This document shows positions 20,173 to 22,361 of a stretch of 64,000 nucleotides of DNA, in pieces. Each line of letters begins with the position of its first letter. The stretch's first letter is position 1. This DNA is from a phage. A program made the position numbers and the translations under genes. Below the pieces are notes generated by a model. It saw only the letters and a list, made by a program, of their open reading frames with translations. It ran no database searches and was not told where the DNA came from. Location of the stretch: sequence record PX441839.1, one strand, 5' to 3'.

Positions 20173-20248
20173 GCCGATTTAGCTCAGTTGGTAGAGCGCT
20201 TCACTTGTAATGATGATGTCGCAGGTTCGAGTCCTGCAATCGGCACCA
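20173..20248 (+). tRNA. tRNA-Thr (anticodon UGU)
   Basis: hand-folded cloverleaf: acceptor GCCGATT/AATCGGC, D-arm GCTCAGTTGGTAGAGC, anticodon loop CTTGTAA, T-arm GCAGGTTCGAGTCCTGC, CCA encoded. Confidence 0.6.
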
Positions 20249-20253
20249 GATAA

Positions 20254-20328
20254 GGCCCAATAGCTCACTGGTGAGAGCCAACCCCTCATAAGGGTTAGGG
20301 CGGGGATCGTAACCCCGGTGGGCCACCA
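20254..20328 (+). tRNA. tRNA-Met/Ile2 (anticodon CAU)
   Basis: acceptor GGCCCA/TGGGCC, D-arm GCTCACTGGTGAGAGC, anticodon stem AACCC/GGGTT with loop CTCATAA, CCA encoded; T-loop read as ATCGTAA (atypical). Confidence 0.5.
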
Positions 20329-20345
20329 ACCAAAGAGAGAATTTA

Positions 20346-20427
20346 GCGCGGGTGTATCTCATCCGTCTTCTAAACGGACGTTAACCGAGTAATTGGAGTA
20401 TGGGGGTTCGAATCCCTCCACCCGCGC
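20346..20427 (+). ncRNA. non-canonical tRNA-like element
   Basis: T-arm GGGGG-TTCGAAT-CCCTC and anticodon-like hairpin TCCGT-CTTCTAA-ACGGA present, but no D-arm fits and the acceptor-like stem extends to a 14-bp perfect inverted repeat (ATTTAGCGCGGGTG / CACCCGCGCTAAAT, about 20341-20432). Confidence 0.3.
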
Positions 20428-20450
20428 TAAATTCTTTTGAGGTGTAAAAA

Positions 20451-20966
20451 TTGCTAAACTTGAAAAATCAAAATATAGATAAAGGCACGGGATATTTATA
20501 CGTGTACGATCCAAGTCACCCAATGGCAAATAAGTCTGGAAAGGTTTATGTTCACAGGTATGTTGCAGAGACGGGGTTTGGTATAAAACTAACACCTGAC
20601 CTGATAGTTCACCACAAGGATGAGAATAAGCTAAACAACGAGCTAACAAATCTCGAAGTTATGACTTATTCTGAACATGCCCGTCACCACCACGGGGCGG
20701 ATTTTGTAGAATGTGTATGCAAGACCTGTGGCAATGTAACTTTGAGGAGGCCCTCGGAAGTTGTATCATTTTGTTCACACAAGTGCTCAACAACATTCAG
20801 AAGGAAATTTGAAATCTCTCCTCAAGAGTTGCAGGATTTGGTTTGTAACTACCCAGTTAGTGTTATTGCAAAGATGTTTGGGGTTAGTGATACAGCAATA
20901 CACAAGAAATGTAAAACCCTAGGGATTAAAAAGATGCCGAAAGGATTCTTTTTAAGACTCCCTTGA
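20451..20966 (+). CDS. HNH homing endonuclease
   Basis: GYLYVYDPSHP...VHRYV...IVHHKDENKLNN...EHARHH is a phage HNH signature; C-terminal helix-turn-helix; probable TTG start after GAGGTG. Confidence 0.6.
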   Translation: MLNLKNQNIDKGTGYLYVYDPSHPMANKSGKVYVHRYVAETGFGIKLTPDLIVHHKDENKLNNELTNLEVMTYSEHARHHHGADFVECVCKTCGNVTLRRPSEVVSFCSHKCSTTFRRKFEISPQELQDLVCNYPVSVIAKMFGVSDTAIHKKCKTLGIKKMPKGFFLRLP

Positions 20967-21022
20967 CATAGGTAATTGATCCTGATAAGATAATTACATT
21001 GTTTCATTTCGGGATCGACAAT

Positions 21023-21397
21023 ATGGCAAAAGCTGAGATCGTAACCCGTAAGCGTGGACGGCCTTCGAAAGAAGAAAGCACAGCCATTGCTACTGAAAAG
21101 GCAATTCTTGAATATCGCCTTAAAGTGGCGATGTTATTACCTACCGCTGTTGATACCCTTAAAGGTCTGTTAACGTCAGGCTCTGAAAAAGTTAAAGAGG
21201 GTACTGCAAAATTCCTGATCAATGAGGCTAAAGAGGTGTTTAACATCTACGTCGCAGAAGATAATCAGGACAGTGAAGCAGGTGGTACAGTATCTGCAAA
21301 CTCACAGACCCACGCTGGATCGTCTGATGAGATTAAAAACATTATGCCTCTTACTACGGAAATCCGTGAGTACAAGATGGCAGAAGGTGAAGATTAA
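21023..21397 (+). CDS. hypothetical protein
   Basis: ORF track 20999..21397; contains RKRGRPSK basic motif. Confidence 0.35.
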   Translation: MAKAEIVTRKRGRPSKEESTAIATEKAILEYRLKVAMLLPTAVDTLKGLLTSGSEKVKEGTAKFLINEAKEVFNIYVAEDNQDSEAGGTVSANSQTHAGSSDEIKNIMPLTTEIREYKMAEGED

Positions 21398-21425
21398 GAC
21401 CCTTCGGGGTCTTTGAGTTTTCTTT
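21397..21425 (+). terminator. rho-independent terminator
   Basis: AGACCC-TTCG-GGGTCT hairpin plus T-rich tail. Confidence 0.5.
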
Positions 21426-21457
21426 TGACGATTATTTTCGTACAAAAGAGAATTTAA

Positions 21458-21544
21458 GCCAGGTTATACCGTAGGGGTAGCGGAGGAGACTGTAAATCTC
21501 TGGTCATTGCGACTCGGGTGGTTCGACGCCATCACCTGGCACCA
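21458..21544 (+). tRNA. tRNA-Tyr (anticodon GUA), long variable arm
   Basis: acceptor GCCAGGT/ACCTGGC, anticodon loop CTGTAAA, T-loop TTCGACG, CCA encoded. Confidence 0.55.
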
Positions 21545-21549
21545 AATAT

Positions 21550-21639
21550 GGAGAGTTGGCAGAGCGGCTGAATGCACCTGACTTGAAATCAGGCGACCGT
21601 TAACTCGGTCCGTGGGTTCAAATCCTACGCTCTCCGCCA
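21550..21639 (+). tRNA. tRNA-Ser (anticodon UGA), long variable arm
   Basis: acceptor GGAGAGT/GCTCTCC, anticodon stem CCTGA/TCAGG with loop CTTGAAA, T-arm GTGGG-TTCAAAT-CCTAC, CCA encoded. Confidence 0.6.
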
Positions 21640-21720
21640 AATATCGCCCCTTATATAAAAGAACACCTGCGCGGCTGGAAAAACCCACTCAACAGTTCTT
21701 GAAAAGGGGCAACAATTTAC

Positions 21721-21798
21721 GGATCATTAGCTACAATTGGTTAGAGCGGCTCACTGTTAATGAGACGGTTCGTGGTTCAAGTCCACGATGATCCGCCA
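21721..21798 (+). tRNA. tRNA-Asn (anticodon GUU)
   Basis: acceptor GGATCAT/ATGATCC, anticodon loop CTGTTAA, T-arm CGTGG-TTCAAGT-CCACG, CCA encoded. Confidence 0.55.
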
Positions 21799-21804
21799 AA
21801 CAAT

Positions 21805-21886
21805 AGAAGGGTAACTTAAAGGCGGGTGTCCTGCCACTGGCCTCCAAAACCAGTCGTAAGGGGTTAGATTCCTCACTCTTCTGCCA
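21805..21886 (+). tRNA. putative tRNA-Trp (anticodon CCA), atypical D region
   Basis: acceptor AGAAGGG/CTCTTCT, anticodon loop CTCCAAA as in E. coli tRNA-Trp, T-loop TTAGATT, CCA encoded; D region about 7 nt too long. Confidence 0.35.
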
Positions 21887-21960
21887 AGTCGGGGTGTGCG
21901 CCAAATAAGAGCGGGTTAGCAACTGTGTTGTAGATTAGTCTACCACCCCACACAATAAGA

Positions 21961-22036
21961 AGTCCTATAGTTTCAGCGGTTAAAATACTCGCCTGTCACG
22001 CGAGAGTCACGGGTTCGAATCCCGTTAGGACTGCCA
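21961..22036 (+). tRNA. tRNA-Asp (anticodon GUC)
   Basis: acceptor AGTCCTA/TAGGACT, anticodon stem CTCGC/GCGAG with loop CTGTCAC, T-arm ACGGG-TTCGAAT-CCCGT, CCA encoded. Confidence 0.6.
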
Positions 22037-22043
22037 TTTCTGA

Positions 22044-22119
22044 TGGAGATTAGCTCAGTAGGTAGAGCAAGCGACCGATAATCGCTGGGTCACTGGTTCA
22101 AGTCCAGTATCTCCAACCA
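22044..22119 (+). tRNA. tRNA-Ile (anticodon GAU)
   Basis: acceptor TGGAGAT/ATCTCCA, D-arm GCTCAGTAGGTAGAGC, anticodon stem AGCGA/TCGCT with loop CCGATAA, T-arm ACTGG-TTCAAGT-CCAGT, CCA encoded. Confidence 0.6.
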
Positions 22120-22124
22120 AATAC

Positions 22125-22201
22125 CTCCGTGTAGCTCAGTCTGGTAGAGCGATTGCTTTGGGAGCAATAGGTCCAACGTTCGAGTCGTTGTACGGAGACC
22201 A
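22125..22201 (+). tRNA. tRNA-Pro (anticodon UGG)
   Basis: acceptor CTCCGTG/TACGGAG, D-arm GCTCAGTCTGGTAGAGC, anticodon stem ATTGC/GCAAT with loop TTTGGGA, T-arm CAACG-TTCGAGT-CGTTG, CCA encoded. Confidence 0.6.
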
Positions 22202-22204
22202 AAT

Positions 22205-22279
22205 TGGGGATTAGCCAAGCGGTAAGGCACGAGGCTTTGATCCTTGTATGCGGAGGTTCGAATCCTCCATCCCCAGCCA
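22205..22279 (+). tRNA. tRNA-Gln (anticodon UUG)
   Basis: acceptor TGGGGAT/ATCCCCA, anticodon loop CTTTGAT, T-arm GGAGG-TTCGAAT-CCTCC, CCA encoded. Confidence 0.6.
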
Positions 22280-22284
22280 AATAA

Positions 22285-22361
22285 GCGTCCTTAGTGTCAG
22301 TGGTCTAACACTCCATCCTTCCAAGTTGGAACCACGGGTTCGAATCCCGTAGGACGCTCCA
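22285..22361 (+). tRNA. tRNA-Gly (anticodon UCC)
   Basis: acceptor GCGTCCT/AGGACGC, anticodon loop CTTCCAA, T-arm ACGGG-TTCGAAT-CCCGT, CCA encoded. Confidence 0.55.

Follow-up and report, generated by a model that had tools for sequence, protein, structure and literature searches.

A phage tRNA cluster encoding two structurally non-canonical tRNAs, one D-armless with an arginine anticodon and one tRNA-Trp with a compact D hairpin

The stretch of phage DNA considered here, 64,000 nt of sequence record PX441839.1 (hereafter the window), carries on its plus strand, between positions 20173 and 22361, a cluster of 12 tRNA genes, ten of them canonical and two structurally non-canonical but real (Table 1). 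A tRNA is considered canonical when it is called by ARAGORN and/or exceeds the gathering score (29 bits) of the Rfam tRNA family RF00005. ARAGORN calls ten tRNAs, each with an encoded CCA end; nine of these exceed the gathering score, tRNA-Tyr having a Rfam score only under the tRNA-Sec model. The same threshold is passed by a gene that ARAGORN misses, a tRNA-Arg(UCU) devoid of a D-arm (match at 20348-20426, 38.4 bits), which belongs to a family designated X-type. The second non-canonical gene is a tRNA-Trp(CCA) with an unusual D hairpin. An initial inspection of the letters, called here the first-pass annotation, had listed eleven tRNAs. Ten of them are returned by ARAGORN with identical anticodons and coordinates, and the encoded CCA claimed for most is present in all ten and in the Trp gene; the eleventh, Trp, escapes ARAGORN and is rescued by comparative evidence, while the tRNA-Arg and a conserved hairpin at 21646-21714 had been overlooked. 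As a whole, the cluster is unremarkable among known phage tRNA clusters. Its probable explanation is that of a Vequintavirinae cluster, similar to that of Salmonella phage SSBI34, in which ten canonical and two rebuilt but real tRNAs would serve in decoding. This explanation draws on which genes are present, how they fold and covary, where they occur, the exclusive use of Arg anticodons in the X-type family, slot replacement and codon bias.

The D-armless gene has a 7-bp acceptor stem (20348-20354 with 20419-20425) followed by the connector UAU and by a 3-bp helix, called helix X, formed by CUC (20358-20360) and GAG (20387-20389). The anticodon arm comprises a 5-bp stem and the 7-nt loop CUUCUAA with anticodon UCU; then come a 12-nt linker containing GGA, a canonical T arm, G73 and finally CUA in place of CCA. 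No D-arm is present, the acceptor and anticodon stems being separated by UAUCUCA only. In the family, the order is acceptor stem, UAU, helix X leading into the anticodon stem across a conserved bulge of 7-8 nt (C(G/A)UUAA-N), linker UAANYGGAGUAU and T arm. The predicted molecule is a three-helix junction in which helix X lengthens the anticodon helix. The invariant segments of the family (UAUC, C.UUAA, GUAA and GGAGUAUG) are all found in the window copy.

Members of the family were searched with an anticodon-agnostic pattern derived from the 3′ part of the element, which matched 28 IMG/VR contigs; the pooled scans yield at least 59 distinct sequences, and the covariation alignment holds 54 distinct sequences. 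Helix X (positions 11-13 with 40-42) was revealed by members with a varying connector. Pair 11-42 is C-G in 54 of 54 sequences, pair 12-41 is U-A in 40, A-U in 8 and G-C in 6, and pair 13-40 is C-G in 47, G-C in 4 and U-A in 3, with no unpaired cell in the helix. Over the whole structure 94.8% of cells are paired, and the covariation score of 0.769 is to be compared with 0.186 for shuffles (0 of 500 reach the observed value) and at most 0.149 for slid controls. The first structure considered for the element, with a 3-bp YCG/YGG ‘variable arm’ hairpin, was abandoned, being broken in divergent members while CUC:GAG covaries. A covariance model (R1) built from 36 CCA-ending members, the window copy excluded, gives 103.1 bits for the window (E about 1e-25), 100.2 bits for phage Felix O1 and 82.7 bits for Streptomyces phage Francob; the best score of a canonical tRNA, in 200 kb of tRNA-rich loci, is 38.7 bits.

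With blastn, the family is found in 249 GenBank phage records, including Felix O1. Its carriers are Felixounavirus, several genera of Vequintavirinae, T5-like Klebsiella phages, jumbo phage 121Q and Francob. Among the GenBank records listed, the gene is nearly always missing from the annotation or entered as tRNA-OTHER, tRNA-Undet or tRNA-Leu, and ARAGORN misses 60 of the 64 copies checked. In 185,579 bacterial and archaeal genomes the pattern was matched 56 times, close to the number estimated for chance, and only two of the matches were genuine members; each lies on a contig of 36-41 kb belonging to a metagenome-assembled genome. The family is essentially phage-specific. On the minus strand of locus L159, near positions 6139-6164, similarity to the family extends over the anticodon arm into the first part of the linker, beyond which it is lost entirely; this copy looks like a truncated or interrupted X-type gene.

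The tRNA-Trp(CCA) gene fails both ARAGORN and RF00005, and its only Rfam match is to the tRNA-Sec model (22.5 bits). It has homologues in eight lineages, namely the window together with SSBI34, PVP-SE1-like Seunavirus, Mydovirus, an IMG/VR contig and four Certrevirus genomes. In PVP-SE1 it is already annotated as tRNA-Trp, apparently without structural comment, and in Certrevirus it lies unannotated between Glu and Asp, also missed by ARAGORN. The CCA anticodon, the anticodon loop, G73 and the encoded CCA end are kept in all eight lineages. In the window, the gene displays an 8-bp acceptor stem, a 4-bp T stem, a C31-A39 mismatch and, behind an 8-nt connector, AACUUAAA, a D hairpin whose stem has 6 bp and whose loop has 3 nt. 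Across lineages the connector between acceptor and D stems has 7-8 nt and the variable loop 5-6 nt. Position U8 pairs with position 65 in 8/8 lineages (U-A in seven, U-G in one), 49:65 pairs in none and the T stem has 4 bp in all; the geometry is therefore that of an 8-bp acceptor and a 4-bp T stem (8/4). In the anticodon stem, pair 27:43 is C-G in all eight lineages and 31:39 is mismatched in six.

The D hairpin carries the comparative argument. Its stem is fully paired in 8/8 lineages despite near-complete replacement of its sequence, with many compensatory changes, as seen in GGCGGG-UGU-CCUGCC (window), UUGCAG-UGG-CUGCAA, UUGCUC-CGG-GAGCAA, UUGCAU-CGG-AUGCAA and GGAGUU-GUGG-AACUCC; stem and loop sizes are 6/3, 6/4, 5/5 or 4/7. 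Seven lineages have GG in the D loop; the window alone has UGU, and it alone has A in place of C56 in the T loop. The joint change of GG to GU and of C56 to A is the one expected if a tertiary G19:C56 pair, the elbow contact, were maintained. The over-long D region remarked upon in the first-pass annotation is thus real, and the gene is genuine by comparative data: it is a conserved tRNA-Trp(CCA), with a compact D hairpin that probably still makes the elbow contact.

The evidence for arginine decoding by the X-type family is of several kinds. All 59 distinct members, gathered by the anticodon-agnostic and pooled scans, have Arg anticodons and no others (UCU in 57, UCG in one, CCU in one), so that C35 is kept and position 36 is U or G; both are taken here to be identity elements for arginyl-tRNA synthetase (ArgRS). 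The 3′ end is N73-CCA in 42 of the 59, with a purine at position 73 in 37 of these. In the linker, GG is invariant and the following A is found in 53/54 sequences; this GGA resembles G18-G19-A20 of canonical tRNAs, A20 being an identity element for E. coli ArgRS. The gene also occupies slots held elsewhere by canonical tRNA-Arg(UCU): in phage Mydo its neighbours are Leu(UAA) and Cys, which in Ro1 and PVP-SE1 flank the canonical gene, and in Felix O1 it lies between Ile(GAU) and Ser(UGA), where Mooglevirus has it. Canonical Arg(UCU) co-occurs with the UCG and CCU members and with only one UCU member (an extended-stem copy in locus L029), a soft count given that most loci are incomplete (median, 3 canonical tRNAs). 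None of the 25 canonical tRNAs of Felix O1 is Arg(UCU), and its genome paper had expected, and not found, a tRNA for the over-used AGA codon (PMC3185647). In the window, where the X-type gene is the sole predicted reader of AGA and AGG, these codons are the most enriched ones, whatever the ORF-length cut-off, with phage/E. coli usage ratios of 8.0 for AGG and 5.7 for AGA; like all ratios given here, they were derived from a crude ORF set and from Kazusa values for E. coli, which may differ from the true host.

Taken together, these features argue that the X-type family is a working tRNA-Arg, whose charging by ArgRS and activity on the ribosome have indirect support. A bolder reading, held tentatively and at slightly less than an even chance, is that 20348-20429 is an unrecognised three-helix-junction tRNA-Arg that would be fully functional in bacterial translation, confined to phages, model phages like Felix O1 among them, and largely invisible to tRNA finders, its core perhaps selected to escape host enzymes that recognise the D-arm or elbow.

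Besides the softness of the co-occurrence count and the crudeness of the codon ratios, several observations weigh against a functional role. The window copy, ending in G73-CUA and not in the N73-CCA of the family, is the only tRNA of the cluster without an encoded CCA. Its leader and trailer pair to extend the acceptor helix to 17 bp, and a paired leader and trailer are expected to hinder RNase P. The GGxVRD motif of CCA-adding enzymes is found in no frame of the window. Such extensions, of at least 9 bp, replace NCCA in at least five X-type lineages (four measured, one read by eye), and the UCU member of L029 that coexists with a canonical Arg(UCU) is of this extended-stem type as well; the extended-stem copies may have lost or changed function. 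As for the Trp gene, its acceptor stem is perfect in the window only, most other lineages having one or two mismatches.

The first alternative to be weighed starts from the same observations. The element at 20348-20429 and the other extended-stem, CCA-less copies would be tRNA-derived processing or regulatory structures and not decoding tRNAs; the 17-bp helix and the U tract that follows it would provide an RNase III or RNase P site, or a partial terminator, parting the upstream tRNAs from the messenger of the HNH endonuclease gene and tuning its expression. The helix is perfect and its fold highly significant (20338-20435: -43 kcal/mol, z = -5.8, equalled by none of 200 shuffles), it is followed by a U-rich tract and then by the ribosome-binding site of the HNH gene, and many extended-stem copies are similarly followed by a U-rich tract and a protein gene (HNH, DUF2828, RNA ligase). 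In L029, the canonical Arg(UCU) lies 95 nt downstream of the extended-stem copy. Yet the window copy retains an intact anticodon loop, helix X, GGA linker and T arm and scores as high under R1 as CCA-ending members (103 bits), and the window has no other AGA/AGG reader although these codons are 6- to 8-fold enriched. Moreover, GCUA is one base away from GCCA and could be repaired by a CCA-adding activity; the related phage Certrevirus CB7 encodes a CCA-adding enzyme (PMC7344957). A processing or regulatory element is judged unlikely, and a decoding tRNA-Arg is preferred; because the window copy ends in CUA and is embedded in the leader/trailer helix, it would need trimming and CCA addition.

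Protein genes of possible interest accompany some family members. In locus L018, a gene for a DUF2828 protein (Pfam E = 1e-28) follows an extended-stem copy, and in Francob (L155:1-1147 and 2495-2575) a gene annotated ‘Ro-like RNA binding protein’ lies 1.3 kb upstream of the X-type tRNA. Bacterial Y RNAs have their Ro-binding stem on the anticodon side, not on the acceptor side. An identity of the extended-stem copies as Y RNAs was rejected on account of this different placement, the weak Rfam YrlA matches being found only on other tRNAs.

From the layout, the cluster would be expressed as two co-directional tRNA transcription units (20173-20429 and 21458-22361), parted by the HNH homing-endonuclease gene and a small conserved ORF, with an intrinsic terminator closing the second. 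Maturation of the X-type and Trp precursors would fall to RNase P and the 3′ processing enzymes of the host; the rebuilt tRNAs would then be charged by host ArgRS and tryptophanyl-tRNA synthetase (TrpRS) and used in translation. For all tRNAs of the cluster, expression, processing, aminoacylation and decoding are predictions read from sequence. The tRNAs with U34 (Arg-UCU, Gly-UCC, Thr-UGU, Ser-UGA and Pro-UGG) would supply codons used 1.8- to 8-fold more than in the host: besides AGG and AGA, the ratios are 3.0 for GGA and ACA, 1.85 for UCA and 1.83 for CCA. They are 0.86-1.35 for the cognate codons of Tyr, Asn, Asp, Ile, Trp, Met and Gln, and 0.69 for the wobble-read CAG. Codon compensation, one of the two roles proposed in the first-pass annotation, therefore suits the first five tRNAs and not the other seven; that it explains about half of the set is supported. 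For the seven others, buffering against the loss of host tRNAs is plausible by analogy, because phage tRNAs counter tRNA-cleaving defences.

This last idea can be pushed further. The main purpose of the two non-canonical tRNAs, possibly shared by Tyr, Asn and Asp, would be to defeat host tRNA-targeting immunity, either because their rebuilt cores make them poor substrates for host anticodon or tRNA nucleases or because they act as decoys, replacing or shielding host tRNAs during infection and not compensating codon usage. Cases are on record of phage tRNAs that restore infection in the face of tRNA nucleases (PMC10264068, PMC11555353). Codon bias leaves Tyr, Asn, Asp, Ile, Trp and Met unexplained, and the X-type family is restricted to phages, with single-stranded segments almost invariant, as for a strongly constrained interaction surface. 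On the other hand, we know of no nuclease that targets tRNA-Arg(UCU) or tRNA-Trp through the D-arm, the anticodon loops of the Tyr, Asn and Asp tRNAs are presumably identical to those of E. coli, and decoding is the simpler explanation for the switches between Arg-box anticodons and for the AGA/AGG bias. Immunity as the main function of these tRNAs is improbable.

For the Trp gene, a specific alternative is a Hirsh-like suppressor reading UGA, in which the altered mechanics of the D-arm would lead to programmed readthrough of phage or host UGA stops. The D-arm mutations G24A and A9C, as well as 4-bp anticodon stems of the Blastocrithidia kind, make tRNA-Trp(CCA) read UGA, also in E. coli (PMC13092985), and the D region is drastically altered in all lineages, with the 31:39 mismatch in six of eight. 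Positions 9 and 24 have no assignable equivalent in the rebuilt D region, and according to the same work the unpairing that promotes readthrough is that of 27:43, at the top of the stem, a pair kept in 8/8 lineages. The mismatch of the phage gene lies at the opposite end of the anticodon stem, and the stop codons of window ORFs of at least 150 aa (31 TAA, 10 TGA and 1 TAG) give no clear sign that UGA is avoided; UGA suppression was rejected as very improbable.

Next to the Trp gene, the spacer 21887-21955 (element D) had been put forward in the first-pass annotation for its acceptor-like ends without a foldable cloverleaf. The GGGGTG and CACCCC ends are there and the cloverleaf is indeed absent; the standing of the spacer as an atypical tRNA or functional RNA is unsupported. 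Its fold is no better than that of shuffled sequence (z about -0.3 to -0.4), it has no Rfam match at E ≤ 10 and no ARAGORN call, and BLAST detects a homologue only in the near-identical SSBI34 (94%). It is possibly a non-functional spacer or a decayed gene or tRNA. The suggestion that the atypical elements in general are functionless, as decaying pseudogenes or chance structures of a fast-evolving cluster, holds for this spacer, which shows no fold signal, no homologue beyond SSBI34 and no model match, and it accords with the fast turnover of tRNAs (SSBI34 has Met where the window has Gln) and with the acceptor mismatches of Trp in other lineages, but for the Trp and Arg elements it is excluded by their persistence in different genera and families, where compensatory changes are numerous, and by their CCA ends, purine discriminators and conserved anticodons, so that as a general account it deserves hardly any credence.

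Table 1. Features of the tRNA cluster and its flanks in the window
Feature	Position	Strand	Remarks
tRNA-Thr(UGU)	20173-20248	+	ARAGORN; Rfam tRNA 73.9 bits; canonical; CCA encoded
tRNA-Met(CAU) type	20254-20328	+	ARAGORN; Rfam 44.6 bits; CCA encoded; Met versus Ile2 identity ambiguous
Leader/trailer extension of acceptor helix	20338-20435	+	20338-20347 pairs with 20426-20435 (10 bp); continuous 17 bp
D-armless X-type tRNA-Arg(UCU)	20348-20429 (Rfam tRNA match 20348-20426)	+	Rfam 38.4 bits; missed by ARAGORN
HNH homing-endonuclease ORF	20451-20966	+	171 aa, TTG start; Pfam HNH_3, E = 4e-10; about 15 nt past extended helix
Promoter-like site before small ORF	20963-20991		
Conserved small ORF (CR9_279 homologue)	21023-21397	+	SSBI34 annotation; no Pfam match
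Terminator-like hairpin at end of small ORF	21396-21413		
Promoter-like site before tRNA-Tyr	21425-21453		
tRNA-Tyr(GUA), class II	21458-21544	+	ARAGORN; Tyr annotated at same position in CR9 and PBES02
tRNA-Ser(UGA)	21550-21639	+	ARAGORN; Rfam 50.4 bits
Element B, conserved non-tRNA hairpin	21646-21714	+	Fold z = -3.0; tRNA-sized slot between Ser and Asn
tRNA-Asn(GUU)	21721-21798	+	ARAGORN; Rfam 53.1 bits
tRNA-Trp(CCA)	21805-21886	+	Homologues in 8 lineages; covarying D hairpin; missed by ARAGORN
Element D, spacer	21887-21955	+	GGGGUG/CACCCC ends; abutting T-like hairpin (5 bp, 4-nt loop)
tRNA-Asp(GUC)	21961-22036	+	ARAGORN; Rfam within 52-66 bits
tRNA-Ile(GAU)	22044-22119	+	ARAGORN; Rfam within 52-66 bits
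tRNA-Pro(UGG)	22125-22201	+	ARAGORN; Rfam within 52-66 bits
tRNA-Gln(UUG)	22205-22279	+	ARAGORN; Rfam within 52-66 bits
tRNA-Gly(UCC)	22285-22361	+	ARAGORN; Rfam within 52-66 bits
Trailer	22362-22510	+	Hairpin sequestering Shine-Dalgarno (22369-22402), mini-ORF MCPWW... (22412-22489), terminator
Intrinsic terminator, end of tRNA operon	22488-22510	+	

Other conserved RNAs accompany the tRNAs. Element B has an outer stem (GCCCCUU/AAGGGGC), an inner stem (AAGAAC/GUUCUU) and an apical loop of 30 nt (ACCUGCGCGGCUGGAAAAACCCACUCAACA in the window). In seven aligned phage sequences both stems show compensatory changes, and the core of the loop, UGCGCGGCUGGAAA.ACCCACUCAA, is invariant while its flanks vary. 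The element corresponds to no Rfam family and is found, nearly always unannotated, in 59 GenBank phage records, its carriers being Mydovirus, Seunavirus KE23 (whose copy ends in A-CCA), Mooglevirus/Felixounavirus-like and other phages. Another element, K, of about 110 nt (111 nt in KaOmega), directly follows the 3′ end of a tRNA and combines a covarying closing stem with the invariant core UCGGAAGUGCGAAUCGCGCGAUAGCUGCCAAU. It was located at L006:3886-3996 (KaOmega), L213:1494-1600, L214:601-708 and L215:601-632, and occurs in 174 GenBank phage records, covering Certrevirus, N4-like Gamaleyavirus, T4-like Gelderlandvirus and Ackermannviridae; it has no match in Rfam and goes unannotated in nearly all of the records listed. 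In KaOmega and F1M1E it occupies the position of the window spacer 21887-21955, which has patchy similarity to it. The spacer was nevertheless discarded as a truncated K element, as neither BLAST nor an nhmmer profile of four K-element members finds a match in it and the core is absent.

Gaps in related clusters hold further unannotated elements of tRNA size with acceptor-like ends and CCA (L009:2380-2456 in Ro1, L151:2316-2400 in CR3 and L152:2215-2300 in F1M1E); one of them, in F1M1E, is an apparent tRNA-Glu(UUC) adjoining an annotated reverse-strand CDS. Near position 1225 of the reverse complement of L013, a 148-kb phage contig that also contains element B, ARAGORN reports a tRNA with an amber-reading CUA anticodon (‘Pyl’).

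The closest sequence to the window is that of phage SSBI34 (Vequintavirinae), with 94.4% identity over 20100-22560; the tRNAs are unannotated in the stretch retrieved. The two phages differ by a cassette-like swap, tRNA-Gln(UUG) of the window being replaced in SSBI34 by tRNA-Met(CAU) (L001:5105-5180) between conserved flanks. In several unrelated phages, an HNH ORF begins 7-24 nt downstream of an X-type gene (window, L031, L035, L154:12051-12443, L026, L048), and a single HNH family directly follows X-type tRNAs in the window, in L031 and in the 360-kb jumbo-phage contig L035. This pairing suggests a mobile tRNA-plus-HNH unit or homing into the 3′ flank of the tRNA gene.

The promoter assignments of Table 1 are weak because promoter-like sites are not enriched in the region (five, versus 4.0 expected from shuffled sequence). 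The interval from the last tRNA to the terminator contains a strong Shine-Dalgarno sequence, AGGAGG (22397-22402), which ACCUCC (22369-22374) sequesters in a hairpin. Also in this interval, the hairpin GUCCG/CGGAC shows a compensatory change to GCCCG/CGGGC. The mini-ORF that follows, MCPWWFGLYPTRILIIIKNISSPSP, contains tandem Trp codons and reaches into the terminator stem with its stop codon. A Trp-sensing leader is one possible reading of the stretch, a mere decayed T arm (GGUGG...CCACC) another. In SSBI34, MCPWW is kept and a frameshift right after WW brings an early stop; the reach of the mini-ORF into the terminator is therefore not conserved there, which weakens the case for a trp-leader-like attenuator. 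A ToxI-like antitoxin mimic, as in Certrevirus phiTE, gave no match in the window with the query sequence used.

Several consequences follow from these assignments. The first is an annotation blind spot: about 249 GenBank phage genomes, some of them much studied, carry an Arg(UCU) gene that is overlooked or mislabelled in the records sampled, and any analysis that sets the codon usage of these phages against their tRNA genes therefore errs on the codons rarest in the host. If the X-type tRNA is charged and decodes, the bacterial ribosome, EF-Tu, ArgRS and RNase P must accept a D-armless tRNA, a form otherwise known, to our knowledge, only from mitochondria; the family would then be a natural, sequence-constrained scaffold for studying the requirements of the tRNA core. 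Finally, the 8/4 tRNA-Trp, element B and element K show phage tRNA clusters to be the site of several structured and conserved RNAs that no database covers.

These features are best appreciated by comparison with known systems. At the level of the cluster, the neighbourhood of the window matches those of other Vequintavirinae, namely Certrevirus (CR3, CR9, PBES02, KaOmega), Seunavirus (PVP-SE1, SalP219, KE23) and Mydovirus (Mydo, Ro1). A nicotinate phosphoribosyltransferase (NAPRTase) gene lies upstream and a terminase gene downstream, and the gene order Thr ... Tyr-Ser ... Asn-(Glu)-Trp-Asp-Ile-Pro ... Gly, with interspersed HNH endonucleases, is shared. The window cluster is smaller, with 12 genes versus 14-25, and it has the X-type Arg, whereas the Certrevirus loci examined show no Arg tRNA with ARAGORN. 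Elements B and K may be likened to the small stable RNAs ‘species 1 and 2’ of phage T4, element B for its location among tRNAs in a cluster and its conservation across phage groups, and element K for its place 3′ of a tRNA and similar conservation.

The Trp gene shares its 8-bp acceptor and 4-bp T stem, 12 bp in total, with the (8/4) tRNAs of bacteria and phages. In the sections consulted of the work that describes them (Mukai et al. 2017, PMC5389517), these are tRNAs for Ser, His, Cys and Sec, not Trp, and the 7-8 nt connector of the phage tRNA-Trp has no counterpart; the 8/4 tRNA-Trp is a new isotype and a variant of the described geometry. It resembles tRNA-Sec in the D hairpin, whose stem is long (up to 6 bp) and whose loop has 3-4 nt, and in the best-scoring Rfam model (22.5 bits for the window, 30.3 bits for the KaOmega copy), below the RF01852 threshold of 47 bits. 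In the window the 6-bp D stem is the sole resemblance, as the branch has 12 and not 13 bp, a long variable arm is missing and the anticodon is CCA and not UCA.

The X-type tRNA has the anticodon loop (CUUCUAA), the slot and the purine 73 of canonical phage tRNA-Arg(UCU), as found in T4, Ro1, PVP-SE1 and Mooglevirus, and the T arm and acceptor stem of the Mydo member are similar to those of the canonical PVP-SE1 gene; the difference resides in helix X and the linker, which take the place of the D-arm. A search of the literature, sequence strings included and subscription journals lying outside its coverage, retrieved no prior description of a D-armless phage tRNA, and this tRNA-Arg architecture appears undescribed. 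Its nearest analogue is the mitochondrial D-armless tRNA-Ser(AGY/AGN), e.g. the Ascaris tRNA-Ser(UCU) (PMC7609411, PMC4013460). Both lack the D-arm and have a short 5′ connector and a lengthened anticodon helix, with UCU as anticodon in some cases. The X-type tRNA departs from the mitochondrial tRNAs in that its T arm is complete and canonical (GUUCGA), its 12-nt linker on the 3′ side keeps GG without exception and a covarying helix X of 3 bp spans a conserved bulge; its anticodons are those of Arg, CCA is encoded in most members and the setting is bacterial.

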